A stretch of 64,000 bases of DNA from an uncultured Rhodospirillaceae bacterium (GTDB lineage: Bacteria; Pseudomonadota; Alphaproteobacteria; UBA9219): contig CAZYPX010000001.1 in NCBI GenBank assembly GCA_964649675.1, positions 10,470 to 74,469 on the forward strand. The letters run 5' to 3'. Within the stretch, counting starts at the first letter, position 1. Each line of letters begins with the position of its first letter. The notes under the pieces are model-generated. The model was not told where the DNA came from. It saw only the letters and a program-made list of their open reading frames with translations, and searched no databases. This document shows, one piece after another, positions 1 through 18,806 of this stretch. The translations under genes were made by a program, and so were the position numbers.

Positions 1-136
1 CGAAGGCTTGGATATCACGTTGACGGACTCCTACGTCTACCAGCGCCAGATCTGGGAGAAGAACCCGGCAACCGCCGCCAACTGGAGCGAGGCCGATATC
101 AACGCCGCTGAGTTTGGCTACAAGGTTCAAACGTAA
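1..136 (+). CDS. 3' end of a phage-like structural (possibly tail-fibre-type) protein; 5' part lies outside the window
   Basis: Frame-2 reading frame is open from the window edge to TAA at 134-136 (…DITLTDSYVYQRQIWEKNPATAANWSEADINAAEFGYKVQT). The context is phage-like. No homology was verified. Confidence 0.3.
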   Translation, partial: EGLDITLTDSYVYQRQIWEKNPATAANWSEADINAAEFGYKVQT

Positions 137-360
137 GAAGAGATCGACATGCTCCGAATTACCCAAACCGCGACGGAAGTCATCCGCCGTCCTACGACTG
201 CGTCCCTGCGCACCTCGCATGTTACAGCCGAGGTTGTGTCACGTCCCGTAACGCGGCATGCTCGAACCACCCACGTCACCGTTGAAATCCTGCGCATGAA
301 CGCCGCACCGGCAACAAACGATCAGCAACCAATGGTCATCATCGTCGCTGGATAAAGCCC

Positions 361-663
361 ATGACTCACCCCCAATCACAACCTGCGCCCTTAGCGCCGG
401 GACAGGAGAACTTTGCCATGAGTCCCAATGAGCAAATCGAGTACTTCCGCAGTATCGGACGGCTAGAGGCGCAAGTTTCAGCGTTGGTCAGCGCTGTGGC
501 CGAACTCAAAACCAAAATGGATGGCATCGACGCGCGGCTCGATCAGCTCGACCGTTTGGCCAATCGATGGAAAGGCGGCTTCGCCGTGATCCTCAGCCTC
601 GGCGCGCTGGCTGGTTTCGTCCTCGACAACCTGTTCCGGTGGTGGACTGCCAAGGGCCAGTGA
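361..663 (+). CDS. hypothetical coiled-coil protein with C-terminal transmembrane helix (phage-associated; holin-like or tail-assembly-like)
   Basis: 100-aa ORF with a central heptad-like region (LEAQVSALVSAVAELKTKMDGIDARLDQLDRL) and a hydrophobic C-terminus (GGFAVILSLGALAGFVLDNLF). Confidence 0.35.
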   Translation: MTHPQSQPAPLAPGQENFAMSPNEQIEYFRSIGRLEAQVSALVSAVAELKTKMDGIDARLDQLDRLANRWKGGFAVILSLGALAGFVLDNLFRWWTAKGQ

Positions 664-785
664 ACACAGCCGGAACCGATCACATGATAATCAAAACGGG
701 CCAATAATCGCCATCAGATAACCCCTTATCTCCTTGATAATCAAGGCGGAAAGAGCGTGAATGATGGTGTGTTAAGGCAAGAATT

Positions 786-1103
786 ATGGAGGCTACTATG
801 AGCAGCAAATTGAATTACCGCGCCATCATTGACGACGTCCAATCCGAGAAATGCAGTGATGAAGAATTGGCAAACCTTCTCGAAATTTTTGAATACGCCG
901 TCAAGAGCATGGCTACGACCCTGGCCTGCAAGGCATGGTTTGATCTGAATGATTTCGCCACCGCAAAAAAGCGGGGCGTCGATGGCTTTATGCTCGTGCT
1001 TGATAAATATCCCCATGCACAGGCCAACCAATGGAAAGGCACCTTTGAGAAGGCAGGCAGGACGGTGAAGGTTTTTTGCACGCTGGAGAAAGATCAGTCT
1101 TGA
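786..1103 (+). CDS. hypothetical protein (105 aa)
   Basis: ORF with an AT-rich codon profile like the surrounding island; no recognisable motif. Confidence 0.25.
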   Translation: MEATMSSKLNYRAIIDDVQSEKCSDEELANLLEIFEYAVKSMATTLACKAWFDLNDFATAKKRGVDGFMLVLDKYPHAQANQWKGTFEKAGRTVKVFCTLEKDQS

Positions 1104-2029
1104 GGGATATCCCAATCGGCCATGCGGTGCTCCCCGGTCTGATAAAACTGACGCACCAATTTGATGCATTCGAGAAAGTCCACATTTTCTTCCGCAAGCC
1201 TGTTCGCTGCATTCCAGTCAACATCCATGCGCTCCCGTGAGGGGATTAGGATTTCGCTATCCGCAGGGCTCTCCACGTCAAGCTTGATAACGCCAATGCC
1301 ATGCAGCCCAGCCAGCATGCGTAATTCCTTTTCTGCACCCTGAATTTCGGCAGCAACAAGATAACCAAAGTTTGACCACGAAGAGTTGCTGACAGCCTGA
1401 AAATAAGCCTCGCGCACATTCGAACGATTGATCAGCTTTTTTACTTCAAAAGACCACAGCTTGGTTTTGCGATCAGCGATTTGCTTCACGCAATCCTTGA
1501 TTTCTTGATGCCACTCCCGGCTGAGGTCTTCCAAACCAACAAGATCAGGGTAAAGCCAGCGATTGCCTCCGGCACCATGATTGTTGTGCGCGCGTTTTTC
1601 GTTAATGCGCTTGCTAAAGACATTCAGTTCGCGCCATAGGAACTCACTGAGCATGGGATAAAGATCATGCTCGGTATATTTCAGAGATGCATCAGCGACA
1701 ACCTGACGTGTGTTTTCTACCGCCGCCGCCTCGGCTTCATCGGACTTGGTGCTGAAGTAGTATTTGCGCGGCCGACCATCGGTTGTTTTCAGTTGCGGGG
1801 ACCGTTTCTCCATTAGCGGACGTTGTGCACTAATCTCGGCGACCAGTTGTTGAACCAATGCGGCATCGGAATCGAGAGGGATAACCGTGGCCTTACTGCG
1901 CTGCTGTTTTTCACGGCACTCAGCCGGATAAGTCTTGAAAATCCAATCCGCGATTTGCCGCGCGGTGAATTTTTCGTCCGGATGAGACTGCAGGAATTCC
2001 AGAACAGTTTTCGACAGGTTCAGCAGCAT
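1094..2029 (-). CDS. Mrr-like restriction-endonuclease-type protein (N-terminal winged helix plus PD-(D/E)xK core)
   Basis: 311-aa ORF. N-terminal part looks like a wH DNA-binding domain. It carries the motif …NRWLYPDLVGLED…WSFEVKK…, which fits D…(D/E)xK. Confidence 0.45.
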   Translation of the reverse strand: MLLNLSKTVLEFLQSHPDEKFTARQIADWIFKTYPAECREKQQRSKATVIPLDSDAALVQQLVAEISAQRPLMEKRSPQLKTTDGRPRKYYFSTKSDEAEAAAVENTRQVVADASLKYTEHDLYPMLSEFLWRELNVFSKRINEKRAHNNHGAGGNRWLYPDLVGLEDLSREWHQEIKDCVKQIADRKTKLWSFEVKKLINRSNVREAYFQAVSNSSWSNFGYLVAAEIQGAEKELRMLAGLHGIGVIKLDVESPADSEILIPSRERMDVDWNAANRLAEENVDFLECIKLVRQFYQTGEHRMADWDIPQD

Positions 2030-2140
2030 GAGTCCTTCCTTGTTAGGACGCGATAATAAGCAATTTGCCTAAAACCACAATCAGGAAGCGCAAAGCCTGA
2101 CTTTTTCAGGATTTTCAACACACAGCCACAGGAGAACGAC

Positions 2141-2812
2141 ATGACTACCCATAAAACGGGGCTGACGCCGCGCGGCATACGCAACAACAACCCAGGCAAC
2201 CTCCGCAAAACGAATGACAAATGGCAAGGGCTGACGGATCCGCAGACAGACGCGGTTTTTTGCACGTTCAAAAGCCCAATTTATGGGATCCGTGCGCTAG
2301 CGCGAACGCTGATCGCCTATCAGGACGATCACAATCTTCGCACGATACGGCAGATCATAAGCCGCTGGGCACCGACCTTGGAAAACGACACGGTCGCCTA
2401 TATCAAGGCTGTCGTTGAAACCACCGGATTCACGCCAGATCAAACTCTCGACATGCATACCTATAATCATCTGAAGCCGCTGGTTCAGGCGATCATCAAA
2501 CACGAAAACGGTCAACAGCCCTACACAGCCACACAGATCGACAAAGCCTTGGTGCTGGCGGGTGTGGAGCCTCCGGCCAAGAACCTCCAACACACGCGCA
2601 CCGTAAAGGGCGGACAGGCCGCTACGGCGGCAACCGTGGGTCTTGGTGCGCTGGAATCCATCCGTGACAGCCTCGACCCGGCACGCGACACGCTGCAAAC
2701 GCTTGTTCCTTACCTCGACATCGCCAAATGGCTTCTGTTGGTAATCACGTTGCTCGGCGTTGGCGTCATGCTCTGGGCGCGGATTGACGATTACAGGAAA
2801 GGACTGCGCTGA
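2141..2812 (+). CDS. phage-derived protein with C-terminal membrane anchor, first gene of a lysis-type cassette
   Basis: 223-aa ORF with the motif GIRNNNPGNLR, which I recall from phage virion or lysis proteins. It has a C-terminal TM helix (WLLLVITLLGVGVMLWA) and is directly followed by spanin-like genes. Confidence 0.4.
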   Translation: MTTHKTGLTPRGIRNNNPGNLRKTNDKWQGLTDPQTDAVFCTFKSPIYGIRALARTLIAYQDDHNLRTIRQIISRWAPTLENDTVAYIKAVVETTGFTPDQTLDMHTYNHLKPLVQAIIKHENGQQPYTATQIDKALVLAGVEPPAKNLQHTRTVKGGQAATAATVGLGALESIRDSLDPARDTLQTLVPYLDIAKWLLLVITLLGVGVMLWARIDDYRKGLR

Positions 2813-3051
2813 TGTGGACGCTTTTATCTGGCTGGCTAACCAGCAACGTCCTGAAACTGATCGGCTGGAGCACAGTAGCTTTATCCGTCCTCGCCGTCCT
2901 ATTCGGCGCACGCCAATCCGGCAAAAACGCCGAGCGCTATGACCAACTCAAGAAAATCGTGGAGATCAAAGATGCGCAATTACGTGCAACGCTTTCTGCC
3001 CCTAGTACTCGCGCTGAGCTTGTTGAATGCCTGCGGGACGGGGATTTCTAG
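2812..3051 (+). CDS. i-spanin (Rz)-like inner-membrane protein
   Basis: 79-aa ORF with an N-terminal TM segment (LIGWSTVALSVLAVLFGA) followed by a charged or coiled region. Its start overlaps the stop of the upstream gene (ATGA). Confidence 0.4.
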   Translation: MWTLLSGWLTSNVLKLIGWSTVALSVLAVLFGARQSGKNAERYDQLKKIVEIKDAQLRATLSAPSTRAELVECLRDGDF

Positions 3052-3205
3052 ATCAGCCTGTGTTTGTCCTCCAATCAAGGCGTATAGCAAAGAGATTCAG
3101 GTTGCTCTAGCGGAAGAGATCAAAGCTGCTCCTTCCGGCGCTGTATTTCCTCAATTTTTAGGTGATTATGCGCTGCTACGAAATCAAATTGGTCTATGCA
3201 AATAA
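2972..3205 (+). CDS. o-spanin (Rz1)-like lipoprotein, encoded out of frame overlapping the i-spanin gene
   Basis: GGAG lies 7 nt upstream of ATG 2972. There is a signal peptide plus a lipobox-like LLNAC, and the mature part is Cys- and Pro-containing (CVCPPIK). This is the classical overlapped Rz/Rz1 geometry. Confidence 0.4.
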   Translation: MRNYVQRFLPLVLALSLLNACGTGISRSACVCPPIKAYSKEIQVALAEEIKAAPSGAVFPQFLGDYALLRNQIGLCK

Positions 3206-6200
3206 TCCATTTGCGTTGGGTCTGTACTCGAACTTCACACGCAATCGTTTGGCACGTTCTTTAAAAGCAGCCTCTCCACCTTCTAGAATTTCACAAACTT
3301 TCCGTCGAATTTCAGGATTTTCCAACCCACCGCTGAAGTACCGAATTTTTGGAAGCTGATTTTGTTGATGCTTTCCACAAGAAGCAATGATTATCTGGTC
3401 TGCATCAGTATTAACAACAAGATTAGCATTATGAGTCACGATAATAATTTGACGACGCTTTCGCGCTGATTTAAACAGAGGAACGAGTTCATCGAAGATT
3501 GATTTTGGATCAAGGTTTTCTTCCGGTTGATCAATAATAAGAGGGCGGTCATCTTCTTTGTCTACCAGTAAATACAATGATAACAACACGATTCCGCGAG
3601 TACCTGGCGATAGCTGCTTTATATCGACCCCTTCATGTTGGATGCCATATTTTACCGTTATGTGGGCTGTCCCATATAGCCAATCCGCAACGTTGTTTGC
3701 CCAGGATCTAAAAGCTGGACGGTCACTTTTTTCAACTTGTGAATGTTCCAGAAGCCCCTGATCATATTTTTCACGGAATAAATTAAGAGCAGACACTATT
3801 TCATCAGAATTTCCTTTCTCCCATGCCACCTGAAGCTCGTTCTGAACCGCAGTTAAAAGTGCTCCCTTACCCTTAAATGGACCTGCTTTTCGCAAATCAA
3901 GAAGCGATTCTCCGCGCTCCGACCAAGATTTTATATCAGCCCGACGCTGCACAATAAAAGAAAGCTTACCAACGGTGCCTTCCTGAGCCTGAAGGTGCTT
4001 CATTAGCGGTTGGTAAAGTGCCTTTAATTGATTTTCCTCTTCTTGAATTGCTTCCAGTACAGCTCTGTACGCTTTTTTCCGTTCATCAATGATATCTTTA
4101 ATTCGTCCAGAAGCTTTTTCAGCGGCTTCAATGTCGCGTTGCAGCTTAGCTTTCTCGGCCTCATCCTTGGCTATTTTTTGACTTATGCGTGCGTATTTTT
4201 TTGCGTTTTCGTTATCAACGCCAATGAGCTGCTGCAACCTAGCAAGCTCTGCGCTTAACAATTCAAACGTTTGTTCATTCAAAGGTACTCCGGTAGGAAT
4301 TAGCGAGTCCACATGAGAGTTCTGAGCCGAAATCGCAGTTCCCGTAATTGATTTTACCAATAAATCAACTTTCTCGTTTTCACATTTGAGAATGGCATCG
4401 ACATCTCCCGCAAATTGAAAGTGGAATTTGTTCCATTGATCCTCATCGAGAAGAGCCGCAGCATGGGTTGTATGTAGTTTTCTAAATGTTTGCGGAAACA
4501 CAGAAGCCTTTATGTTCTTAATTTCTTCCTGTAAGTTTTTGAGAGCTAGTTGCCGTCTTTTCGCGGCTTCGAGTTTCGCACGTACCGAGTCAAGCGCTAA
4601 TGCAACTTCTCCATGCTTTGTTGCACGCTCTTCTTTGCCTTTCCCGACAAGCGACTGTCGATCTTTCTTATCGTTTTCTATGGCTCTTTCTTTTTCTCTC
4701 AATTGTTTCTTTAGTGCTGGAAGACTATCTATTTTTTCACGTTCTGAATTAAGCTCATCCGAAAGTGCCGATAAATGTTTTTCATGGTAGTCCCGAGAGG
4801 CCTTTGCTTGCGCTGAGCGTAAATCAAGTAACTCTCGAAAACTTCCTGCACCCATTCGATCTTCTAACTTATGAGCTTGAAAGATAACCCGTTCTATCTC
4901 TTCCATTAACTTATCTGTCGGCCCTTCTGCGGTACATAAATCTTCAACAAACTGCTGTGAAAGATACTGGACACGAGGAACATCTAGTAACTCTTCGATT
5001 TCAACAAATCGAAGGCCGTTGCTTGTAGACTCTCCCGCGCCCCATACCAGAGTAGCCGTTTCGTCGGTAAATAACTCATTCGCACGATGAATAAATGATC
5101 TCTCGTTCAACTGCGATAATGCCGAATAGCCACCGACGGCAACAAGATCCGCAAGCGCTGTTTTTCCAGAGCCGCGTGCGCCGATGACCGCTATTAAACC
5201 GGAATTAAGTTGTATGCATGAGGTTTCCAGCCAAGCTGCATCGCTTACGTGAACACTTCGAATAATCTGCGAGGGCGTTCCTCCTGTCGGGCAATTCTCA
5301 GCGATGCAAACGCGTCCATCTGGTTCTATGCACGCTTGCCTAAGTGATTCAAATGTCAAATCACCCTTAATCCATGAATATCTGTTTAAAGCGGGATTTG
5401 CGACAGCAGCTTGCTCATGAGCATCGCAGCCATGTAAACATGGCTTTCTTCCATCGTACATTTCTTCGAGTTGAACGGTTGATAGCCTTCCTTTCCCCAA
5501 CCAAAACTCTCTTTGTTTGGGGTTCGATGAAAATATGATGTGCGATACCCGTTCAATTTCGATTCTGGTTGCAGCAAAAGTAGCATCTTGCTGCAGTCCT
5601 GAGGTTCCATCCGAACCATTACCAGAAACCGCAACGAGAATATTTTGAAGTGCCCATTCGTTCTGCCTGAAAACACCTCTTAGTTGATCTAGGGAGATTT
5701 TAAATTGATTGGTTCCTGCTGAAAGCGCCTGCTTTTCATCCAAGGTTGCACCGCAGCACGCCCTTCCAAGCAGTATTAGATCCTCGCGTTCACATCTGTA
5801 GGTTTCTTTGCCGTATTCAAAGGAAAAGTTCTTTAAAAAACGTTTGATTTGATCGACATGATCAGGATCGTCAGGTGATACGAGAAAATGAGTGTTTATA
5901 GCTGTCCCGCGAGATGTTCCAACGATTAGCCGAAATTCAATGTTCGGAAAAATTAATCCGACATTTTTTAGACGTCCTGTTGCTTTATATTCCAACACTT
6001 TCTCGTAGTTCTTCAGGCTTAAGTAATCTGTATAGCCGAGCTAAAATAAAATGATCAAAAGAAGGAAACCAAATGGGATCCCCGCCTTCGCGGGGATGAC
6101 GAGTATGGGATTCATTTCAAAATATAAAACCGTCATCCCCGCGAAGGCGGGGATCCCATTTTTTGAATCATTTTATTCTGGATCAGCTATAATGCCAAGG

Positions 6201-6394
6201 GCACGAATTTGAGGATCAGACGATTCAATTTGAGAAAGAAAGGAATTCCACGGATCTTCTCCATTAAATTGATCGTTTAATATTGTTTCAGGCGTATGTA
6301 TGTGGGGATCCCAGCGATGCCAAACTGATCCTTCAGGATTTTTTGTAAAATCTCTCTTTGTATTTGGTTCCTCTGTTTTAGCGGCAATTTGCAT
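3194..6394 (-). pseudogene. PHP-domain fused to ABC/SMC-like coiled-coil ATPase (about 1000 aa), reading frame interrupted by a palindromic insertion
   Basis: The upstream 73-aa ORF (6394-6173) carries WDPHIHTPET (PHP motif I). The 934-aa ORF continues the PHP fold (NIEFRL, INTHFLV, CLHGCDAHE matching GSDAH-like motif IV). It then carries Walker A VIGARGSGKT and a coiled coil of about 400 aa. The ABC signature LSPGTRG, Walker B LIIDQPEENLD and H-loop VTHN follow. Both ORFs are in the same frame (coordinate mod 3 = 1) and are separated by the 6041-6176 element, which supplies TAA and TAG stops. Confidence 0.6.
6041..6176. mobile_element. MITE-like palindromic element (about 136 bp) inserted inside the PHP-ATPase gene
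   Basis: Perfect 28-nt inverted repeat AATGGGATCCCCGCCTTCGCGGGGATGAC / GTCATCCCCGCGAAGGCGGGGATCCCATT around a 33-nt core. It is flanked by outer inverted ends AAAATAAAATGAT / ATCATTTTATT that carry stop codons. Confidence 0.6.
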
Positions 6395-6493
6395 AACTAT
6401 CTCCCCACGATATTCTGTCGTTCCAGATTAAACTCGATAGTTCACGAGCATACTGTTAGGCAATAAAAGACCGACTCGTTTGATAAAGCCGAG

Positions 6494-9001
6494 TTAACCC
6501 GCTACGTTTCCGCGATATTCCACAACAGTCAGAACGGTATCGTATAAACCAACATCTTCAAGCTCGTGCTTGTTGATACCAGTGTATTCAAGGCTAGCAT
6601 CCTCATAGCGTTTAAATTTGTAGACAGCATCATTCATCAATGCGCTGTTGAAAACGCCAAGGCTGACCAGTAGCTCGAAGTCTTTGACGATCAATCCCGT
6701 AACTTTTTTAAACAGGCCGGGTTCAAGCTGAGTGACAACATCTCTTAAGGCTTTCTCGCGGTAATCCGTGAGATACATAAAAACGGGAATACGCGTGGCA
6801 AACTTGATAAGCTTTTCTTGAATTTGCTTGCGAAGGCTTTTGTATTCTCTTTCTTCTTCGCTTAACTGCTTCTTTTCTTTAGCCGTCAGTTCACGCTCAT
6901 TGGCTGCTTGTTTGGCCTTTTGGACAGCATCTGATTTGTTAATGATCGTTTCAATATCCTCATTGAGTGTGCGAAACCCTTCAATTCGCATTAATGCATC
7001 CATCGCGTCCTTATTTTTCATCAAGCGGTGCAGAGTGTTGTTGTCCACATTGACCAACAGAGCACTTTCCCAACGCCGTGCCAGCAGCGTGGCTGTCGTA
7101 CCACTCATTGCCATATCTAATACACCGGCGGCATTGATTTGCTTCATCGAACTACCGTCGTAAGCCAGTACGGGCAGGAAGTGTATAAACTCCTCAACCT
7201 TTTTCTCGGGGTTCGCTTCATCAATGTTCAAACGGCAGCTGTAATCTGCGATCTGACGAAGCGCACGATCGGGTGCAAAATCAAAAACGTAACACTCACG
7301 CTTGATGATTTCCTGCTTGTTCGGTGATTTGCTATCAGGGTTTTTGATGACCCACGGCGTCTGTACGCGGAACGCGGCCTGAAAATATGTCTCAGGACTT
7401 GAGCAATTTCTCAACATGAGAATACCAGTCCAAGGCTTAACCGAGACACCAGTGGTTAACTTACCGCAAGAAAGTGTAATGGTCTTTGAAATTAAAGGGT
7501 TGTCCATTGCATCTTCAACAGGTGGTAATGCCGCAACACCGAGACCTGCCTCAGAACCTGCAGCAACAATAATCTTATAGTCCTGGTAAAATTTGTTCTG
7601 CCGTTGCTTAAGCAAGTTTTTCATCGCATGGCACGATGAGACAGAAGGCAAAAACCAAAAAGTATGAGAAAGCACGTTAAGCAGTCGCGCGTCTGAAAAA
7701 GGCATGGGTGGTTTTTCTGCACCAAGCTTCAAGTTATCGACAGTTGTTTCCAAGAACGCACCACGTATCAAATCCAGCCATTTCTGGACATCGCTTTCAT
7801 ATTTAAACTTAGCTTTTGAGCCTTCACCGTTCGCTGAAAAAAAGATGTTCAAGTCGAACTGGTTATACTCCCCGCCCATGGCGATCTCACGAATAGAATC
7901 CGGCAACTGGTAGGTTAGCATGACCAAACGTGGCAAAGACTCATAAGGGTTGTTTTCGCCCTTCCATTTTTCCTTGGCGCGCTGCTCATCAGAATATGTC
8001 CAATTATAAATCTGTTCCTCGATGAACTCACCAGCAGCAATAGCGCGGAAAGGAGTGCCTGAGAGATAAAGGTATGCCGAAGTTGTAATCGGCATATTGC
8101 TCTCGTCAAAAAATTCCAAGCCTCTACCTTCGGCATCACGTATTTCTCGCTCGTCCTCGGCTTCAAAGAGATCTTTCGCGTTCTCGCGCCACGCGCCGTA
8201 ATGATATTCGTCAAAGGCTACGCAATCCCAATTTGTGGTGTGCACCCATTCATTTCTCGCCTTGATGCCACCAGCGGAATTTTTGCCCAAATAGTCTTGA
8301 AATGAGCCAAAGCAAACGATAGGCCTCTTCGGGTCAGCTTCCTCAAAAGAAAGACCGTTCCTGGAAATAAACTGCCAGCCTTTGAAATCGACGTGAGATT
8401 TAAGATCTTCCTCCCAGGCGCTCTGCACAGCGGGCTTAAAGGTCAAAACTAAAATGCGCTTCCATCCCATCTTTTTGGCAAGCTGATAGGTGGCGAATGT
8501 CTTGCCAAAACGCATTTTCGCGTTCCAAAGGAAGTGTGGCGTCTTCTTAGGATTTTCTTTCCTGAAACTTTTAAAGTAGGCAGCTGTTTTCTCTACAGCT
8601 TCCTGCTGTTCGGGTCGCATCCCAAAATCCAGCGTCCGGTTCTCCTCATTCTCAATCCCATCACGCACGGCGACGATTGACGCCTTCACGTCTTTCACGG
8701 AACACTTGAACCATTCGCCATCAGGGTTCTTGAAACCCTTCTTCTTCAAATGGCGATGAATATCGTGATCAGTGAAAGAGCTGCCGTCCTTGCGCATGGC
8801 AGATTCTTCAAGCACGATTTCGTACGGAAGTTTTCCGGGACGAAGCGTCGGGTATTGTTGTGCAACACGACTTTTAACATCCACGCTGGTAAAGCCAACT
8901 TTTAACAACCCGGCATATTGGGGGTTTGTATCACGGTAAGCATAGATTGTTGGCTTAGCCTCTGGCCTTGGCGGAAAGAAAACATCACTCATCCGTGACA
9001 T
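6494..9001 (-). CDS. SF2 helicase (ResIII/DEAH-like) with N-terminal T5orf172 (GIY-YIG-like) domain
   Basis: 835-aa ORF. N-terminus [22 protein letters not shown]…EWFKCS fits T5orf172. It is followed by Walker A-like RFGKTF and a DEYHYG box. The gene overlaps the upstream MTase gene by 17 nt. Confidence 0.6.
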
Positions 9002-10553
9002 CCCCTATCAAATCACTATCCATTGGACGAACCATTGATTCAATAAATGCGATGTCCTTCTTGTCCAAAGCATATTTCTTGTACAACTTCTCGTCCGTCC
9101 ACTCCTTGGAAAAATCCTGCATAGGCACGAAGGTATAGACCCTACGGGTAGTATCCTGAGATGGCTTGTGCAGGAGAATTAGTAGCCGTGTAAGGCGGCA
9201 TGATAGGTAGGATAACACGCTCTCAGCTTGTTTTTGGGATTCTAGCGGCCCAATACATAAATATGTTTCAGAAGAGATCGTACCCGGCTCACCAATAAAA
9301 GGGGTGCTTATGATCTTATGTGGGTAGGTATCTTTGTTGCCAGTCCCTGGAGCAGCTCGACCAGTGAAAACTTTCCATTTATCGATGTATTGGGTTCCGG
9401 ATGTAATCCTTTCTCTTGGGGTGTAGCCTACGCCCCCGTTCTGATAAACTGTCACATCATTGCTACGTTTGGCTGTTTTACCCTTGAATGTAGTCTCTAA
9501 ACCGAACGGCTTCCTAGAACTAACCAAACGATCAAAGCGCTTTGTTTCAGGCAGAGCGAGTGTTTGGGTTTGACCAGTCTCGACAGCGATGACTTTCTTA
9601 AGAATAGAAAGGCCTTCATTGAAACGAATAAAGACATCAGCTCCTTCTTCTCTAAGAGGCCGAACGGTTGTCGAAACCGGCCAATCCTTAAAGTGAGTGC
9701 TTACCTTACAAGGACCTGGATTGTCGCGGTCCCAAAGAAAGTAACAGACGCCTCCTTTGAGGCCGACACCGGGAAAAACATCGGAAGCACTTAGATAGTC
9801 ATCAATAGAACGCAATCGGTTGTCGGAAAGCATCCCGTCTCTGAATTCATCCAGTCCCTTGCCACCAGAAAACCATCTGGAAGGAATAATCATGCTCAAA
9901 TATCGCGGATTTAATTTTTTAGCTTGTTCAACAAATTTATCGTAAATGGGTGCAGCGCTAGTTCCGAAGCCAGAGTCACTCAACTGGTAGGGCGGGTTTC
10001 CTACAATGACGTCAAATCTCATGTTGAATATCCTTTCCGGCTCGTTGGTATGTATAAATTCATAGGCATGTGTTTCTAGTCCTTCTTCGCGCGAATAATT
10101 CTCTTGGCTTGCTCCACAGAACTCGCATTTTCCATTTTTCCAAGCATGTTCGGTGTGCACGTAGCGAATGTTTCCCGCCTCCCGCTTAAACGCATTTGTG
10201 ACAGAATAGTCTCCGTTAGCTTTTTTCGAACAGTACACCGAACGTCGCGATAAAAGGGATGTCATCTCAGTGATGGAAATCCCGTAAAGCTGTTTTCCGT
10301 AGATATGGTCAATGCGCTTTTGCAAATCTGGAATTTCCTTTTCAAGTCCTTTCAAAAGGCGCTTCGCTATTTCTCTCAGGAACACACCAGATTTGCACAC
10401 AGGGTCAAGAAAAGTCGCGTTTTTGTCCTGCCAAATCGTTTCAGGCAAAAGGTTAAGAACAAGATTTGCGACTAGGGGCGGCGTAAAAACCTCGTCGTTG
10501 CTCAAGTTGGCAAGACAGCTCAAAACATCCGGATTGTAGTTGATCTTAAGCAT
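8985..10553 (-). CDS. gamma-class N6-adenine DNA methyltransferase
   Basis: 522-aa ORF with motif [13 protein letters not shown], motif [13 protein letters not shown] and motif IV NPPY in the order X-I-IV, as in the Eco57I/TaqI type. Confidence 0.6.
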
Positions 10554-11202
10554 TGTCGCTCAACTTCAAAAAATGCATCAGCGGAAATTCTCTGACAGGC
10601 TTCGGGATGATTGCTGGTTCGTTTAAATCGGAAAAAAGAGTCATTTCGCCCATTGGCTGGTAATCCAGCAAATGAGCTAAAGAATAGTCCCGGCGCTTGA
10701 TCATGCTTCCATTGACCGCAGACCATTCAGCAAAAATGATGGGTTCTTGCTTGCCACAAACCGTTTTCATAGTCAGCGCATCGCCCCACAGTATGTTTTT
10801 GCTAAAAATGAATTTGACCGACTGGCGACAGGCCTCGTTGCATTCTTTGCTATAAAGAGACGTATACCGGTCATCAAAAAGATCGAAAAGTCTCTGACGA
10901 CATTGAAAGACGTTATCCTCCAGAATGTCTACGCCGTAGATTGAAGAGACTGCTAAAACAGCGTATCTTTCGTATTCGAGTTTGCTTTTCTTATAGCGGC
11001 TCTCTACGATGGCCAACTTGCGCCGCAAAACCTCGATGAGAAAATTTCCCGTTCCGCAGGCAGGTTCCAAGAAGCGGGATTCGATCCTATCGGTTTCCTG
11101 CCTAACGAGATTAAGCATCGCATTTACTTCCCTTTCAGGAGTAAACACCTCTCCGTGATCATTCACACGTTGTTTTGATTTGATTTGCAAAGCGCTAAAC
11201 AT
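10546..11202 (-). CDS. MTase-like protein with motifs X and I only (truncated or degenerate N6A-MTase module)
   Basis: [14 protein letters not shown] and [12 protein letters not shown] are present but no NPPY/F. The likely start is ATG at 11202, which overlaps the Xis stop by 8 nt (ATGTTTAG). The ORF track extends to 11358 in overlap with xis. Confidence 0.45.
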
Positions 11203-11419
11203 TTCTTCCCTTCTTTTTGCTGCTGCGCGCCCAGGCGTCAATTTCATCCAATCGAAAGCGCCACGTGCCGCCGACTTTGAAGGCAGGAATTTCGCCTCGT
11301 GTAAGAAGGGTATAGATTGAGCGTTCCGTGACCTTGAGGTAAGCGGCGACTTCCTCAACGGTAAAGACCTCTGGCAAGCGTATCTTTTGCGACTCTGTCA
11401 TAGGGCGTAAAATATTCAA
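11195..11419 (-). CDS. AlpA/Xis-family (MerR-like HTH) excisionase/regulator
   Basis: 74-aa ORF: …FTVEEVAAYLKVTERSIYTLLTRGEIPAFKVGGTWRFRLDEIDAWA, a typical phage Xis/AlpA HTH_17. It is the first gene of the minus-strand operon. Confidence 0.55.
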   Translation of the reverse strand: MNILRPMTESQKIRLPEVFTVEEVAAYLKVTERSIYTLLTRGEIPAFKVGGTWRFRLDEIDAWARSSKKKGRNV

Positions 11420-13093: not shown

Positions 13094-14083
13094 ATGCGTT
13101 TTGAAAAAGCGGAAGACTTGCTTAACCTTGCCTTTGCCATGCAGTCATCTGCGGATGGTGTTGCACTGGCAGAAATAGAAGAGATGTTCGAGGTCTCGCG
13201 CCGAACAGCTATGCGAATGCGCGATGCAGTCGTTCGCGTCTATCCGCAGGCCGAGGAAACCACGGACGAGAACAGGATCAAGCGCTGGCGCATTCCGAAT
13301 GCGGTGAACGGCAGACATCTCTGCCTAACCCCCGACGAACTCGCGACCCTTGATATGGCTGCCAAGGCGTTCAACGGGAAAGGCCTTGCACTACAGTCCA
13401 AGGCGCTGCGTTCGTTATGCGGAAAAATCAAAAGCTTTCAACGATGTGACATTTCACGCCGTGTCGAACCCGATCTGGAGGCGCTGATCGAAGCCGAAGG
13501 GCTTGCCGCACGTCCTGGCCCGAAGCCCAAAATCCAAGTTGAACACCTTCATTCTTTGCGCGAAGCCATTAAAGCCTGCCGCATCGTAGAGCTTCATTAT
13601 CGTGGCAAAGGCAAGAAGGACGCCGAGGTCAAACGCATTTGCCCTTACGGCTTTCTTTACGGGCACCGCCACTATCTTGTTGGCGGCGCTGCTCAGAAGG
13701 ATCGCGCGGGATCCTATTATCTCTTTTGCCTCTCCCAGATTGATGGCGTAACCATCACAAAGGAAAGCTTCCGGCGGGATCCGTCATTCAACCTGCAATC
13801 CTATGCTGAACAAGCTTTTGGCGTATGGATGGAAAAGCCGCAGGAAATTGTCTGGAAGTTCTCACCGCGTGCTGCTGTTGCTGCACGGGATTTTGTGTTC
13901 CACCCCAAGCAGACGATTGAGGAAAAAAAGGACGGTTCTCTGATCGTGCGCTTCAAGGCAGGAGGCATGCTTGAGATGGCATGGCATCTGTACATGTGGG
14001 GTGATCAGGTTGAAGTGATTAAGCCACATGAACTGAAGAAAATGTTAAAGAGCAGACCGTCAAAGTGGGAAGGTTTGCCCTAA
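13094..14083 (+). CDS. WYL-domain transcriptional regulator (HTH-WYL-WCX; BrxR/CapW-like)
   Basis: 329-aa ORF with an N-terminal HTH and a WYL core …RHYLVGGAAQKDRAGSYYLFCLSQIDGVTI. Its stop overlaps the start of the downstream nuclease gene (TAATG). Confidence 0.65.
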   Translation: MRFEKAEDLLNLAFAMQSSADGVALAEIEEMFEVSRRTAMRMRDAVVRVYPQAEETTDENRIKRWRIPNAVNGRHLCLTPDELATLDMAAKAFNGKGLALQSKALRSLCGKIKSFQRCDISRRVEPDLEALIEAEGLAARPGPKPKIQVEHLHSLREAIKACRIVELHYRGKGKKDAEVKRICPYGFLYGHRHYLVGGAAQKDRAGSYYLFCLSQIDGVTITKESFRRDPSFNLQSYAEQAFGVWMEKPQEIVWKFSPRAAVAARDFVFHPKQTIEEKKDGSLIVRFKAGGMLEMAWHLYMWGDQVEVIKPHELKKMLKSRPSKWEGLP

Positions 14084-15390
14084 TGCTCAATCCATTCGAT
14101 CAATACGATGGCGATGAAAATAGGCTAACGCATGCGTTGGCGATCACCCTTGAACGTAGCTCCGCCTTTCTAGAAGCATTTGTTAATCAATGTGGTGCGA
14201 AGCGTGCACTCGGCAAAAAAGTCAGGGTGGAGATACAAGTTGTCATGCACTCTGCTGATGCTTCTGAGGAAACAGCCATCCCAGATCTCTTACTTGTTGA
14301 TGAGGAAGGACGGCGAGGTCTCATTTTTGAGGTTAAGGTAGGCTCTCCATTGAAATTAGAGCAACTAAAGCGCCATGAATCTCGCGCTCGTGACTATGGA
14401 ATAGATGTCGCAGGTAAATACGCGATCACAGGCAGACAAATTGATGCATTGAAGATTGAACAATGGAAGCAAACTTCTATTCAGAAAGACTGGCACCACA
14501 TCGCGTGGACTGCAATTTATGAGTCAGCCAACAAACTAAAAGCTAAATGCAGCTGGTCTGCTGATCTCGCTGATTACCTTGGAATTGTAGCGGCTCAGAG
14601 AGGAGATGACGATATGGATGGTAGGGTAAAATTGACAACATTTACCGGCATTCCCTTTAAAGCACCGCATAGAAAAAAAAATCAAGAAGGCATGTATGAC
14701 TACGATCCAAACCAAGCAAAGCGACATCTATTGGCTTTAGTCGACTGCCTCGAAAGTGATCAAAGATTATTGACCGACCTTGGTTTTCTTAAAGGACAGA
14801 AACCACGGCGTCGCGGCAGTGTCGAGGTATCGAACGCTGTATGGGATTATCTCTCACCGTTGGGGCAAGAGGATCACCACATTAGCGGCTATCATTTTAC
14901 CATCGGTATCGCCACAGATCATGCAAGTGCGATGCTGACGGTTCCGAATGCAAGTGACGAATTTAGAAAATTAAGGCGATTTGTGAAAGATAAAGGCGAA
15001 GCTGCATTTGAAAAGCTTATACATAGTTTTCTCCAGAGAATTAGAGATTTAAACCTCGACAGGTTTGGTTTTCAGCCATGCATTGTCATGAAACAGCGCC
15101 GCTATAGAACCATGCGAGAGGTTTATGCAGTCGATGGTTCTTTGACATTCGATTTAAGAACGCTTGTTGGTCGTCCTGCAGAGGGGAAAGCGCCCGCCAT
15201 ACATAGGCAGCCCGAATGGACATCGTTCTGTTATCAACTTCTGAAAGATAAAAATTCAAATATCCAGTTTCAGATCGGTCTTCATTTTATGTACGGTTTT
15301 ACAGAGGAATTAAATCGGGCAGAAGCGGCTGAATATTTTAAAAATTCGCTGAGAGCTACAACAGTCTTTTTGCAGGAGTTAAAGTCTTAA
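14083..15390 (+). CDS. PD-(D/E)xK nuclease-family protein
   Basis: Carries the motif AIPDLLLVDEEGRRGLIFEVKVGS (PD…E-V-K). It is translationally coupled to the WYL regulator. An A9 homopolymer lies at 14673-14681 inside the ORF. Confidence 0.5.
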   Translation: MLNPFDQYDGDENRLTHALAITLERSSAFLEAFVNQCGAKRALGKKVRVEIQVVMHSADASEETAIPDLLLVDEEGRRGLIFEVKVGSPLKLEQLKRHESRARDYGIDVAGKYAITGRQIDALKIEQWKQTSIQKDWHHIAWTAIYESANKLKAKCSWSADLADYLGIVAAQRGDDDMDGRVKLTTFTGIPFKAPHRKKNQEGMYDYDPNQAKRHLLALVDCLESDQRLLTDLGFLKGQKPRRRGSVEVSNAVWDYLSPLGQEDHHISGYHFTIGIATDHASAMLTVPNASDEFRKLRRFVKDKGEAAFEKLIHSFLQRIRDLNLDRFGFQPCIVMKQRRYRTMREVYAVDGSLTFDLRTLVGRPAEGKAPAIHRQPEWTSFCYQLLKDKNSNIQFQIGLHFMYGFTEELNRAEAAEYFKNSLRATTVFLQELKS

Positions 15391-18300
15391 GCCACTGCCT
15401 CTTTTTCCATTCCATTCACGTACGCAGAACGATCCGCATAAGCCTTCGCCCAACAGAGCGTGTTAACGAGGCGCATCTGATCGATTGTATTGCAGGATAT
15501 CTCCAACAACCGTGGATTGGCATAAATCACGGCCAAGCATCGGGCGCGGCTGATGGCGACGTTTAGCCGGTTTCTGCTGAATAAGAATTCAATGTTGCGA
15601 GGCAATTCCTCTGCCGACGAGGTCACCATCGAAATCAGCACAACAGGCGCTTCCTGCCCTTGAAACCGGTCAACAGTGCCAACGCGCGCGCCTTCCGGCA
15701 GCGTTTTTTCCAAAAGGTCAACTTGCATATTGTAGGGCGTGACGACCAGAATATCTTCAATGCCTAGTTCGTGCTTGTCGCCAACTTCATCCACCCACGT
15801 CATACCTAACAGGCTTTCATAGGTGTGTTTGAGACGCTCGGCTTCTTCCTCGCTCTTTTGCGAACATCCTTCATGCTCGACTTCAACAAACCGCAAGCCA
15901 GCGGATATGATGGCATCCGGATCCCGATTGCCATCAGCTACAATATGCCGTCTCGCGTTATCCAGATCTGGTTGCAAACGACCATCGTACACAGCGTCTG
16001 AAATAAAGTGGCAAATCGCCGGATGCATGCGCCGCGTTGTAGCCAGGAATATCCCCTGTTCAGGCGGCACAGTCGCCGCTTCGCCAAGAAGATACTCCAG
16101 CGCAGAAAGCCCTGAGCTGCCCGGATGAATGCCTTGAATAGGCTGGGACAACTGCATCTGATCGCCAACAAGAACAATGTTCCGCGCGGACGTCCCCATA
16201 GCGACGATATTGGCAATGCTGACTTGACCAGCCTCGTCGATGAACAGGTAATCCAAAACCTGATCGAATGCCGGACGCGAAAAGAGCCAAGCTGTTCCTG
16301 CGACCAGATTATAGGCTTCGCTTTCAGCCTCTTCATTTTTCTCCGTGTTTTGGATGAAGCCCTTGCTATCTATCGCATGATCCTCGCCAGAGCATTTTTT
16401 GACCCCACGAAAATGTATGTTCTGCTCAACGGCGCGCTTTTCCACGGCGGCAAGCAAGTTATTGATTGCTTTATGAGAGTTTGAGGCAACGCCCACCCGT
16501 TTACCCTGTTTTAGCAGCTCCACAATTGCATGAGAGGATGTGTACGTCTTGCCCGTGCCCGGCGGCCCTTGGATCAGGATATGGCTGTTATCCAAACGCG
16601 CTACGGCGCTCACTGCTGCTAACGTAGGATCATCTCCCGGTTTGATAATAGGGTCGCCGTGTTGGCAACCATTGATGTGTGGCAACTCTTTACGCAAGAT
16701 GCTCGTTACGGCTGGGTATTGTCCTTGATTGCCATTCGCGACGGCCTCGGCATAGCGGAGAATGGCACCGCGCAAGACTTTGTCCTCTAACGGCCCTGGC
16801 GGAATGAGCGACAGACAATCAGGCAGATCTGTCTGTTTGTTGCTAATCTTGAGAGCAATCCGTCGGGCTTTATCGTCCAGACCTACGATGGTGCCGAAAC
16901 GCTTGCCCGTTAATGAGCTGATCGGGTCAGTTCCAACACCCATTTTGAAATCTTGTGCTGGAAACTCGAACTCATAGACGAGTGATCTGTCGCGGGGACT
17001 CAATTTGTAAGGCGTAATGGATTTGTCGAGTGTGCACTTGCCGATGCACTCAGCGTCTTCGACCATTTCCTCATCCGACATATCCAAGCGTGTAAACAGC
17101 GCCCACCAACCCGGCTTTGACTCACGGCGATGAAACTCAAGCAAGTGACCGACAAGCTCACGCCACGGCTTCTCGGTTTCAGGAACGCCTTCCTGCAGTT
17201 TTGCGATGAGTTGGGCTGTACGCGCCTCAGCCTCTTGTCGTGCGGCGTCCTTCTCCGGATTTTCGGGTTCGTCAGAATTAGGGGAAAACCAATCGACATC
17301 TGAGGGCCGCAACCTCAACAACCAATCACGGCACATCAAGGTCGAGCGGCAGTCGAATTCGTTGTAATCGGAGATTTCTCTCAGAATGGCATCATCGCCC
17401 AAAGCCCGCCATTTCTCGTACATGACAATGCTGTCACCGGCTGTCTTGACTTCACCCGCGCGTTTCTCGGCATAGAATGTTTCCATATTCTTAATGGAAT
17501 AACGCGGCTCGGAAACGCGAACGGCCTCGCGGACGACTTTGTAAAGATCGACCAGCTTCCGGTTGCGCAGAAGGAAATCAACTTCGGCCTCGCGCGTGCC
17601 GTGGTACATGGCCAAATTCTTTAGAGCCGTCTCCTCATACGCGGCGTAGTGGTAGATGTAGGCATCTGGATAGGCCGCAAGCCGAGCCATGATGAAATCC
17701 ATGACAGCCTCAAAAGCCTTTTTCTCCTCCTGGCGATCATGCGCCCAGAAAGCCTTAAACTCTGGTTCTCGCTTTTCATTTAGTAGGACGAAGCCGAACA
17801 GATATTCAAGACGCGGATTTCCGTAGTGGGGATCGCCTTCCATATCGAAGAAGAGATCGCCATCGTTAGGCCTGGGAAGACGAGCAAAACCTTTATTCGC
17901 CTGAAGAGGCAAGATTTCGCATTTGTCCTGACCATCGTCTCTCTTGGCAATTTGTAAGCGGGCTTGTTCGCGCAGGCGCGTTAAGGCATCCGGTTGCAAC
18001 TTGGGAATGGCTTGATCAACTGAAAGATTGGCTAGCTCCCGCATGCTGTTGATACCGGCACGGCGTAATTTCTTGATCTGGCTGCCCTGTATATTGGCCA
18101 CCATACGTAGATGTTCGCTCCGTTCCCATTCCTCTTCGCAACGAAATGCCCAACGGCACTTGCTGCACCGCGAACAAGGCTCGCCGGTGCGAGGCATATA
18201 TTTCTGTTTAATGAAATCTAGAAAACGCTGCCCTGCCAACCCTTGATAGTACTGGAAATCAGAAACGCGCAGTGTGACCTTGCTCTTATTGCCGAGCACG

Positions 18301-18806
18301 ACATGCAGATCACGCGGGTAAAGCCCTTGTTCTTCGGCCAGAAGATCCGAATACACATAAAGCTGGACGACATATTCCGGCTTTGCGTGCAAGGCGAGCT
18401 TCGTATCTGCAACTTCATAACTAAAATTGCCAAGTTTCGATGGCTTTTCCGTACGCAAGAGAAAATCGGCAAAGCCGTTCCATGGATCCCTGAGAAAGGC
18501 AGCCTGATAGATTACATCGACTCCGGATGCCAAAGCTTCCTTCGTCAGGGCAACCCTGCGGGTTGTCGACGTATCCTGCGGGATTTCAGCAATAGAACAA
18601 CCCAACTGCCGCAAATGCTCCAAATAGTCGTATTCATGCTGCAGCCCTTTTTGTTTCAGAAGTTCAGAGCTTTCATCGGTTTCCTTGGGCAAATCGGCTG
18701 GCGAGAAAACCTGTTGCACATCGAATAGCGTGGCACACGGACATTCCAGATACGTCACCAGATCGGAGGGAGAAAGCAACAGCCTGTTCTGTTCATCGCG
18801 GCGCAT
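15387..18806 (-). CDS. Dna2/Nhi-like nuclease-helicase (N-terminal RecB/Cas4-like Fe-S nuclease plus C-terminal SF1 helicase)
   Basis: 1139-aa ORF. N-terminus has LVTYLECPCATLFD and a Cys cluster CSRCSKCRWAFRC. C-terminus has Walker A ILIQGPPGTGKTYT, the DEAGQVS box and SF1B motifs. It is convergent with the nuclease gene, with a 4-nt overlap. Confidence 0.6.
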   Translation of the reverse strand: MRRDEQNRLLLSPSDLVTYLECPCATLFDVQQVFSPADLPKETDESSELLKQKGLQHEYDYLEHLRQLGCSIAEIPQDTSTTRRVALTKEALASGVDVIYQAAFLRDPWNGFADFLLRTEKPSKLGNFSYEVADTKLALHAKPEYVVQLYVYSDLLAEEQGLYPRDLHVVLGNKSKVTLRVSDFQYYQGLAGQRFLDFIKQKYMPRTGEPCSRCSKCRWAFRCEEEWERSEHLRMVANIQGSQIKKLRRAGINSMRELANLSVDQAIPKLQPDALTRLREQARLQIAKRDDGQDKCEILPLQANKGFARLPRPNDGDLFFDMEGDPHYGNPRLEYLFGFVLLNEKREPEFKAFWAHDRQEEKKAFEAVMDFIMARLAAYPDAYIYHYAAYEETALKNLAMYHGTREAEVDFLLRNRKLVDLYKVVREAVRVSEPRYSIKNMETFYAEKRAGEVKTAGDSIVMYEKWRALGDDAILREISDYNEFDCRSTLMCRDWLLRLRPSDVDWFSPNSDEPENPEKDAARQEAEARTAQLIAKLQEGVPETEKPWRELVGHLLEFHRRESKPGWWALFTRLDMSDEEMVEDAECIGKCTLDKSITPYKLSPRDRSLVYEFEFPAQDFKMGVGTDPISSLTGKRFGTIVGLDDKARRIALKISNKQTDLPDCLSLIPPGPLEDKVLRGAILRYAEAVANGNQGQYPAVTSILRKELPHINGCQHGDPIIKPGDDPTLAAVSAVARLDNSHILIQGPPGTGKTYTSSHAIVELLKQGKRVGVASNSHKAINNLLAAVEKRAVEQNIHFRGVKKCSGEDHAIDSKGFIQNTEKNEEAESEAYNLVAGTAWLFSRPAFDQVLDYLFIDEAGQVSIANIVAMGTSARNIVLVGDQMQLSQPIQGIHPGSSGLSALEYLLGEAATVPPEQGIFLATTRRMHPAICHFISDAVYDGRLQPDLDNARRHIVADGNRDPDAIISAGLRFVEVEHEGCSQKSEEEAERLKHTYESLLGMTWVDEVGDKHELGIEDILVVTPYNMQVDLLEKTLPEGARVGTVDRFQGQEAPVVLISMVTSSAEELPRNIEFLFSRNRLNVAISRARCLAVIYANPRLLEISCNTIDQMRLVNTLCWAKAYADRSAYVNGMEKEAVA

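Follow-up and report, generated by a model that had tools for sequence, protein, structure and literature searches.

In Type III restriction-modification (R-M) systems, of which EcoP15I is an example, the Mod subunit is a beta-class N6-adenine methyltransferase (motif order IV to VIII, target recognition domain, X, I to III) and the Res subunit consists of a superfamily 2 (SF2) motor followed by a C-terminal PD-(D/E)xK nuclease. Type ISP enzymes such as LlaGI and LlaBIII are single polypeptides that combine an Mrr-type PD-(D/E)xK nuclease at the N-terminus with a motor, a methyltransferase and a target recognition domain, and they translocate along dsDNA by means of ATP and cleave when they collide head-on. 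Type I systems are multi-subunit, with a gamma-class methyltransferase, a separate HsdS and an HsdR laid out as nuclease, SF2 motor, and helical C-terminal domain. Type IIG and IIL enzymes (Eco57I, MmeI) carry nuclease and methyltransferase on one chain and have no NTPase. Trios of a methyltransferase, a helicase and a GIY-YIG protein have been predicted to be R-M systems with single-strand modification and were noted to have attracted little attention (Morgan et al., PMC2731913). One such trio is DnmA(YeeA)-YeeB-YeeC, composed of an MmeI-like methyltransferase, an SF2 helicase and a T5orf172/GIY-YIG protein; in Vibrio, deletion of the dnmA or the yeeB homolog was reported to raise sensitivity to some phage subclades (PMC9973331). 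Here, we describe the sMT-MT-HEL cassette, located in a 64,000-nucleotide stretch of contig CAZYPX010000001.1 from an uncultured Rhodospirillaceae bacterium (the whole stretch is referred to as the window). The cassette encodes a half-methyltransferase (sMT), a gamma-class N6-adenine DNA methyltransferase (MT), and a nuclease-motor protein (HEL), and it is preceded in the window by a gene for a small helix-turn-helix (HTH) protein. It is probably a three-subunit, ATP-dependent, translocating R-M system that works like Type I and Type ISP, with the HTH protein as an optional regulator at this locus.

The four open reading frames (ORFs) are co-directional on the minus strand, from 11419 to 6494, in the order HTH_17 gene, sMT, MT, HEL. 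Adjacent genes share stop/start overlaps of 8 nucleotides at all three junctions, read directly from the sequence: ATGTTTAG between the HTH gene and sMT, ATGCTTAA between sMT and MT, and ATGAGTGA between MT and HEL. The features of the locus are as follows.

11195 to 11419, minus strand: HTH_17/excisionase-family DNA-binding protein, 74 residues from a TTG start, 68 residues from an in-frame ATG
10546 to 11202, minus strand: sMT, a half-methyltransferase of 218 residues, 100% identical to the 218-residue database protein P0121
8985 to 10553, minus strand: MT, a gamma-class N6-adenine DNA methyltransferase of 522 residues (Pfam Eco57I, E = 1.2e-37)
9714 to 10553, minus strand: MT catalytic domain, residues 1 to 280, with motif IV (NPPY) at 9987 to 9998, delimited by block identities and residue frequencies
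9114 to 9713, minus strand: MT variable region, residues 281 to 480, a putative target recognition domain (TRD), delimited by a drop in identity between conserved flanks
6494 to 8992, minus strand: HEL, a nuclease-motor subunit of 832 residues, 100% identical to the 832-residue protein P0001
8675 to 8944, minus strand: HEL T5orf172 (GIY-YIG superfamily) nuclease domain, from Pfam and invariant residues
7202 to 8623, minus strand: HEL SF2 translocase core, with motifs I, II, III, and VI
6497 to 7201, minus strand: HEL C-terminal domain, all-helical in a low-confidence AlphaFold (AF2) model and without a Pfam match
6471 to 6492, minus strand: terminator-like hairpin followed by a T-run, directly 3′ of the HEL stop codon, which is the end of the operon

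The start of sMT was placed at 11202 because its homologs align only from about residue 58 of a longer, 270-residue ORF and because P0121 begins at M53 of that ORF. The 270-residue version, which starts at a TTG and overlaps the HTH gene by 164 nucleotides, was rejected as a longest-ORF artifact. For HEL, the ORF call from 9001 gives 835 residues, and the homologs are 832 residues long and start at 8992. The co-directional genes with overlapping stops and starts had been pointed out in a first-pass annotation made from the letters of the sequence. That annotation had also described the methyltransferase as gamma-class with an NPPY motif, a second methyltransferase-like protein as truncated, and the helicase as carrying an N-terminal T5orf172 domain instead of a C-terminal PD-(D/E)xK endonuclease; the motif orders and Pfam domains given below agree with each of these descriptions.

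Besides the Eco57I family, MT matches the PADLOC model MTase_II (E = 5.4e-54). Its motifs run in the gamma-class order, with motif X (DEVFTPP) at residues 20 to 26, motif I at 48 to 58, NPPY at 186 to 189 and the putative TRD C-terminal to these. NPPY is invariant in 65 MT homologs, and motif I, which binds S-adenosylmethionine (SAM), has the variant form DPxxK(S/T)G; by these two motifs, MT is predicted to be a gamma-class N6-adenine methyltransferase. Three oddities in the SAM motifs are shared by the whole family: K54 in motif I, an alanine, glycine, or serine for the acidic residue of motif II, and N128 for the aspartate of motif III. These residues are invariant across the 65 sequences and in distant variants as well. 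Identity to the window copy is mostly about 60 to 78% per 20-residue block over residues 1 to 280 (range, 43 to 78%) and 14 to 47% per block over residues 281 to 480, with the flanking parts staying conserved. Such a pattern is expected for diversifying target recognition, and residues 281 to 480 are therefore the putative TRD that would set specificity. Between the SAM-binding motifs and NPPY lies a conserved cluster of residues (C108, H136, W138, C143, and C146; window positions 10114 to 10232), absent from sMT and from the full-length relatives of sMT, that could be a zinc-binding element. At one related locus, in a Polaribacter metagenome-assembled genome (L075, 4953 to 7990), two tandem MT genes stand between sMT and HEL and could represent two specificities or a specificity-switching arrangement.

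HEL combines a nuclease domain and a motor. In the numbering of the 835-residue ORF, a T5orf172/MUG113 domain (GIY-YIG clan) spans residues 20 to 109 (E = 3.8e-10) and ResIII spans residues 127 to 280; the T5orf172 match scores 40.6 bits against a Pfam cut-off of 20. Invariance was assessed in 42 close homologs and in an 11-sequence set that included variants at 31 to 59% identity. In the numbering of the 832-residue protein, the invariant positions comprise the nuclease core (Y17, K31, G33, R42, and E93) and the SF2 motifs I (GKT, 163 to 165), II (DEYH, 261 to 264), III (SGTP, 311 to 314), and VI (QAAFRVQ, 538 to 544). T5orf172 domains form a branch of the GIY-YIG endonuclease superfamily, and the invariant Y17, G33, R42, and E93 place HEL in this branch. 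Another T5orf172 protein, Gp88 of phage ICP1, has been described as an origin-directed nuclease (PMC8263062). The helical C-terminal domain of the model may correspond, by its position, to the methyltransferase-docking C-terminal domain of HsdR. The PADLOC model REase_MTase_IIG (PDLC03626; 1,359 positions, built from REBASE "Type IIG" fusions) matches HEL at profile positions 152 to 800 (E = 6.4e-29) and MT at positions 863 to 1356. One profile thus spans both proteins, and single-chain nuclease-motor-methyltransferase relatives with the motor-methyltransferase order of Type ISP therefore exist, as represented solely by this PADLOC profile.

The 218-residue sMT gives partial methyltransferase matches that cover N-terminal motifs only (MmeI_Mtase, 17 to 72 of 259 positions; N6_Mtase, 19 to 66 of 311). 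Motifs X, I, II, and III are still present in it; motif IV has degenerated to AIIPKPV, with IPKPV where an active gamma-class N6-adenine methyltransferase has (D/N)PP(Y/F), and motifs V to VIII and the TRD are absent. The SAM-binding motifs are thus retained and the catalytic motif is lost. Among 40 homologs, 57 columns are invariant, including GEVFT of motif X, LEPACGxGNFL of motif I, YGxD of motif II, and GDAL of motif III. The relatives of sMT form approximately 800 clusters (50% identity; E below 1e-30), almost all of 210 to 240 residues, and by these sequence measures sMT is not a decaying fragment. Its AF2 model is a confident partial Rossmann fold (pLDDT 79), for which Foldseek returned matches to the N-terminal halves only of CamA, BsaXI, LlaGI, and PglX (TM score of about 0.3). 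The N-half of MT is homologous to sMT (hhalign probability, 95%). Among the top 150 sMT cluster representatives, six are full-length methyltransferases of the Eco57I family (483 to 580 residues) with an sMT-like N-half and an MT-like C-half. Because the tail of sMT lines up with LFSDFQMDFDVIIGNPPY of these full-length relatives, in the motif IV region FDVIIGNPPY, its sequence identifies sMT as a truncated paralog of a full methyltransferase, dead in motif IV and ending just past it. The alternative that the sMT sequence SEW is a degenerate NPPY was rejected; in the full-length relatives, PIxFSEW precedes a separate FDVIIGNPPY.

These full-length relatives of sMT are encoded by orphan genes, by genes that have a small, unrelated gene as partner, or, at one locus (L092), by a gene directly 5′ of a HEL homolog. 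The L092 locus (4592 to 6746) is a two-gene variant in which a single methyltransferase, P0313, overlaps the start of a HEL homolog that is 57% identical. P0313 is 64% identical to sMT residues 19 to 159 and from NMKFDVIIGNPPY onward follows MT. Its sole source is a low-coverage metagenome contig, and it is a lead rather than proof. A natural split into sMT and a C-half-only MT was also considered, and its sole candidate (L074) proved to be a frameshifted MT pseudogene.

A scan of GTDB with one genome per species yielded at least 594 confirmed helicase relatives. Loci were compared for the best 80 of these, 65 of which have at least 2.4 kb of upstream sequence. In total, sMT, MT, and HEL are present in order and near full length in 57/65 of these species loci, an arrangement far beyond chance, and in the other 8, sMT, MT, or both are reduced to remnants, cut short, or lacking. 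The best 80 loci come from Pseudomonadota, Myxococcota, Cyanobacteria, Chloroflexota, Bacteroidota, Actinobacteria, Planctomycetota, Patescibacteria, Spirochaetota, and others, with one archaeal copy, in a Woesearchaeota metagenome-assembled genome. The trio is also found on Sphingopyxis and Rhizobium plasmids, and distant variants occur in Mycolicibacterium (HEL 43.5% identical) and Legionella adelaidensis (31%), in which the small first gene is an sMT homolog. Only five phage records contain a relative of HEL, and a megablast search of Escherichia coli genomes with the locus gave no match. The flanking genes vary from locus to locus, and no conserved fourth core gene was found among them. 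Additional genes are inserted between sMT, MT, and HEL in 22 of the 57 complete loci (L007, L009, L010, L018, L032, L062, L063, L067, and L072 among them); in the ten that were scanned, the Pfam families of the inserted genes include DUF1016/YhcG, Bro-N, RhuM, Fic/DOC, ORF6N, PDDEXK_3, PIN, an IS200-like transposase, and a small GIY-YIG protein. DUF1016, RhuM, Fic/DOC, and GIY-YIG genes have also been reported from Type I R-M operons, in which they separate the core genes (PMC9881135).

Across 76 HEL proteins, pairwise identity is 69 to 100% (median, 77%). In all of 25 random pairs, synonymous differences have reached saturation (median proportion of synonymous differences, pS, of 0.89), at a nonsynonymous divergence (dN) of 0.17, and the GC content at third codon positions of the HEL gene ranges from 0.23 to 0.85 and tracks the overall GC content of the flanking host DNA (r = 0.82). 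The saturated synonymous sites and host-tracking composition indicate that the copies have long been adapted to their hosts while the protein barely changed, and the substitution pattern identifies strong purifying selection on HEL. Conservation of this degree is unusual for a restriction subunit and implies a very tight constraint, plausibly imposed by a multi-partner complex.

In a classical R-M system, loss of the methylase before loss of the nuclease should be lethal. At five related loci (L012, L028, L030, L074, and L076), a full-length HEL match, with an intact ORF at least in L074, accompanies an sMT or MT that is lost, shortened, or frameshifted. Either HEL does no harm in the absence of MT, or artifacts of assembly or decay account for these loci.

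The first-pass annotation had proposed an R-M-like module of unusual architecture, and this proposal is supported. The cassette matches no solved or named family, and there is no full-length homology to a characterized Type III pair, nor to Type I or Type ISP. Searches of the PDB by sequence with HEL and MT returned nothing, and profile searches gave insignificant or motif-level matches only. The same annotation had likened the locus to Type III mod-res, a likeness that stands for the gene order and fails for the domain layout, since the layout of HEL resembles that of Type I HsdR and its domain set is that of Type ISP. In contrast to Type III, MT is gamma-class and the nuclease of HEL is an N-terminal T5orf172 domain; Pfam found no PD-(D/E)xK domain in HEL, and EcoP15I Res gave no sequence match to it. 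Unlike Type ISP, the cassette consists of three separate, overlapping genes, has T5orf172/MUG113 in place of the Mrr-type nuclease and adds a dead half-methyltransferase, and similarity to Type ISP is not detectable at the sequence level. With Type I, the cassette shares a gamma-class methyltransferase, a multi-subunit composition and several hitchhiker genes, and HEL appears to follow the domain order of HsdR, although its C-terminal domain is modeled at low confidence and its nuclease has a different fold. Neither the window cassette nor any of the 57 complete loci includes an S-like gene, the putative TRD lies inside MT, and no Hsd family of NCBIfam or Pfam was matched beyond the generic N6_Mtase and ResIII. 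The nuclease resides on an SF2 ATPase rather than on MT, which distinguishes the cassette from Type IIG and IIL.

Defense systems of other kinds fit no better. In BREX and DISARM, a PglX or DrmM methyltransferase comes with PglZ and BrxC/BrxL or with DrmA/B/C. The only link of the cassette to them is a weak, domain-level match to PglX (E = 3.5e-6), and none of these partner genes was found among the neighbors in the window or at related loci. For the MAD1-MAD8 system (MADS), MAD1 scored 70.8 bits (cut-off, 80) and MAD2 26.6 bits (cut-off, 720); a MAD3 match, on the neighboring TrlF gene, scored 25 bits (cut-off, 420). Hma (HmaA, HmaB, and HmaC) resembles the cassette in having a helicase-nuclease fusion that acts in phage defense and defense genes inserted in the operon (PMC11232893). 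HmaA is a Snf2 helicase with a C-terminal PD-(D/E)xK, whereas the cassette nuclease differs in fold and position; Hma also has an extra ATPase and no half-methyltransferase, and no PADLOC or NCBIfam match links the two. DnmA-YeeB-YeeC, compared here by description rather than by sequence, has the same three activities as the cassette, which differs in fusing nuclease and helicase, in adding the dead half-methyltransferase and in having a methyltransferase of the Eco57I Pfam family that is about half the size. By analogy, then, the cassette is nearest in working terms to Type ISP and Type I and nearest in composition to DnmA/YeeA-YeeB-YeeC. No specific model for it was found in NCBIfam (2026) or PADLOC (2023), and no paper on the exact sMT-MT-HEL cassette was found in the searchable literature.

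We favor an R-M function because the catalytic motifs are intact, the synteny of the trio is wide, MT residues 281 to 480 are variable, and the hitchhiker genes are shared with Type I operons. The existence of fused relatives, the nuclease family, the DnmA-type precedent, the purifying selection, and the defense-rich context of the window copy argue in the same direction. Under the proposed mechanism, MT would recognize its site through its own variable C-terminal domain and would mark self DNA by N6-methylation of adenine. HEL would be the restriction subunit, comparable to HsdR with the PD-(D/E)xK nuclease replaced by one of the T5orf172/GIY-YIG type. At an unmethylated site, MT would license HEL, which would then hydrolyze ATP, translocate along DNA and cleave it, probably away from the site upon collision or stalling. 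As an obligatory structural or SAM-binding subunit without catalytic function, sMT would belong to the MT-HEL complex, and the HTH protein would probably set transcription of the operon. Several points weigh against this reading. The activity of MT on its own is not certain, given its noncanonical SAM-motif residues, and the role of sMT is a proposal only. The AF2 model of HEL is poor (pLDDT 56), such that its fold resemblance to translocases is reliable at the domain level only. No experimental test of any member of the cassette family was found in the searchable literature, and DnmA-YeeB-YeeC of Bacillus subtilis, conceptually the nearest analog, did not protect against phages in the conditions that were tested (PMC9973331).

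The noncanonical residues of MT can also be read as the mark of a split enzyme. In that case, sMT would be the working SAM-binding half, the N-half of MT would have taken on another use (the docking of HEL, for example), and an sMT:MT heterodimer would be needed for methylation and perhaps also for SAM-dependent licensing of cleavage. The canonical motif I (EPACGxGNF) and the motif II and motif III aspartates of sMT are all invariant, the departures of MT at the matching sites are equally fixed, and full-length single-chain relatives join an sMT-like N-half to an MT-like C-half; P0313 even does so directly 5′ of a HEL homolog. Yet MT possesses the full gamma-class motif set in one chain, and its conserved N-half should fold with its own C-half. 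M.TaqI likewise lacks the first glycine of motif I. P0313 comes from a single contig of low coverage, and the remaining single-chain relatives either are orphans or have a small, unrelated gene as partner. We therefore regard the split enzyme as unlikely. A neighboring version of the R-M interpretation, in which sMT is an obligatory third subunit that supplies or senses SAM for a methyltransferase with drifted SAM motifs, and in which both marking and licensing need the heterodimer of active and pseudo-methyltransferase, appears slightly less doubtful and is offered tentatively.

Two further explanations dispense with restriction or tie the operon to a mobile element. The methyltransferase might mark DNA for gene regulation, with HEL inactive or engaged in repair or another role, as was concluded for the B. 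subtilis trio, for which neither phage protection nor motif avoidance was found (PMC9973331). Such a module is very improbable here: strong purifying selection keeps all nuclease and ATPase motifs invariant from phylum to phylum, the TRD is hypervariable, the cassette moves on plasmids and in prophage-adjacent and defense islands and gathers several of the hitchhikers reported for Type I operons, and the 8 of 65 loci with decay of sMT, MT, or both retain HEL. Still less credible is an excisionase-led operon expressed in step with the excision of a mobile element, as the first-pass annotation had suggested in calling the locus Xis-led. The 74-residue protein does match Pfam HTH_17 (E = 1.6e-17) and the excisionase-family domain TIGR01764 (55.5 bits). 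The window copy also has the remains of a prophage tail module on one side and argH on the other, and its closest relatives (L088, L089, and L091) are similarly placed, adjoining Phage-tail_3/Rcc01698_C and ParB/RepB genes. However, the best NCBIfam match of the HTH protein is MAD1, the HTH regulator component of the methylation-associated defense system, and PADLOC labels the protein mad1. Only the window (identical to L004), L089/L090 and L046 have the HTH gene immediately 5′ of the cassette; at L080, a remote HTH match lies about 2.3 kb upstream, within a 688-residue ORF, and the remaining related loci, the Sphingopyxis and Rhizobium plasmid copies included, lack the gene. Coupling to excision is unsupported because the gene occurs in so few lineages, and no integrase is adjacent to it. 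Upstream of the HTH gene, neither a sigma-70-like site on the correct strand nor an inverted repeat was found, the three loci with an HTH gene share no conserved operator, and the window contains no tRNA that could mark an integration site. The HTH protein is an optional accessory and probably a transcriptional regulator of the operon.

The surroundings of the window copy are rich in defense genes, comprising a TrlF-family PHP/AAA ATPase, a WYL protein and a RecB-like nuclease/superfamily 1 (SF1) helicase. The TrlF-family gene (3194 to 6394, minus strand; NF045780, E = 2.5e-181) lies 3′ of the cassette and is split into ORFs of 73 (N-terminal) and 934 residues by an element of about 160 bp at 6031 to 6191 that resembles a miniature inverted-repeat transposable element. 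The perfect 31-nucleotide inverted arms of this element, AAATGGGATCCCCGCCTTCGCGGGGATGACG, are nested in a second, imperfect inverted repeat, and no second copy of the arm was found in the window. TrlF is absent from all related loci and is therefore not part of the system. A second probable defense module occupies 13094 to 18806 and consists of a WYL/WCX regulator (13094 to 14083, plus strand), an overlapping 441-residue protein without a family match (14065 to 15390, plus strand), and a convergent 1,139-residue protein (15387 to 18806, minus strand) that combines a TM0106-type RecB-like nuclease (TIGR03491, E = 1.3e-82), RNase_H_2, and an SF1 helicase (AAA_11/AAA_12), with a partial match to Mokosh MkoA. 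At the left edge (1 to 3200), the window runs into small phage-like genes, beyond which a Phage-tail_3/Rcc01698_C tail protein is encoded (L004, 15942 to 22499). The subclade of the cassette to which the window copy belongs is apparently carried as cargo by a prophage or phage-plasmid.

If the R-M interpretation is right, the cassette represents a very common ATP-dependent restriction family that has never been studied biochemically, with close copies in at least 594 GTDB species and protein clusters numbering in the thousands. What would be new is the combination of a GIY-YIG-type nuclease on an HsdR-like motor with a needed, dead half-methyltransferase. Current annotation splits the cassette into "N-6 DNA methylase," "Eco57I domain protein," and "GIY-YIG nuclease/DEAD box helicase," and defense-finding tools would call it Type IIG at best. 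A characterized member would assign methylation motifs in many methylomes, would add the subunit logic of a pseudo-enzyme partner to R-M biology and might explain the unusual conservation of a defense system. If the heterodimer with sMT is indeed obligatory, it would be a bacterial R-M counterpart of METTL3-METTL14, and such a dependence could explain how approximately 77% protein identity has been held across nearly all bacterial phyla.

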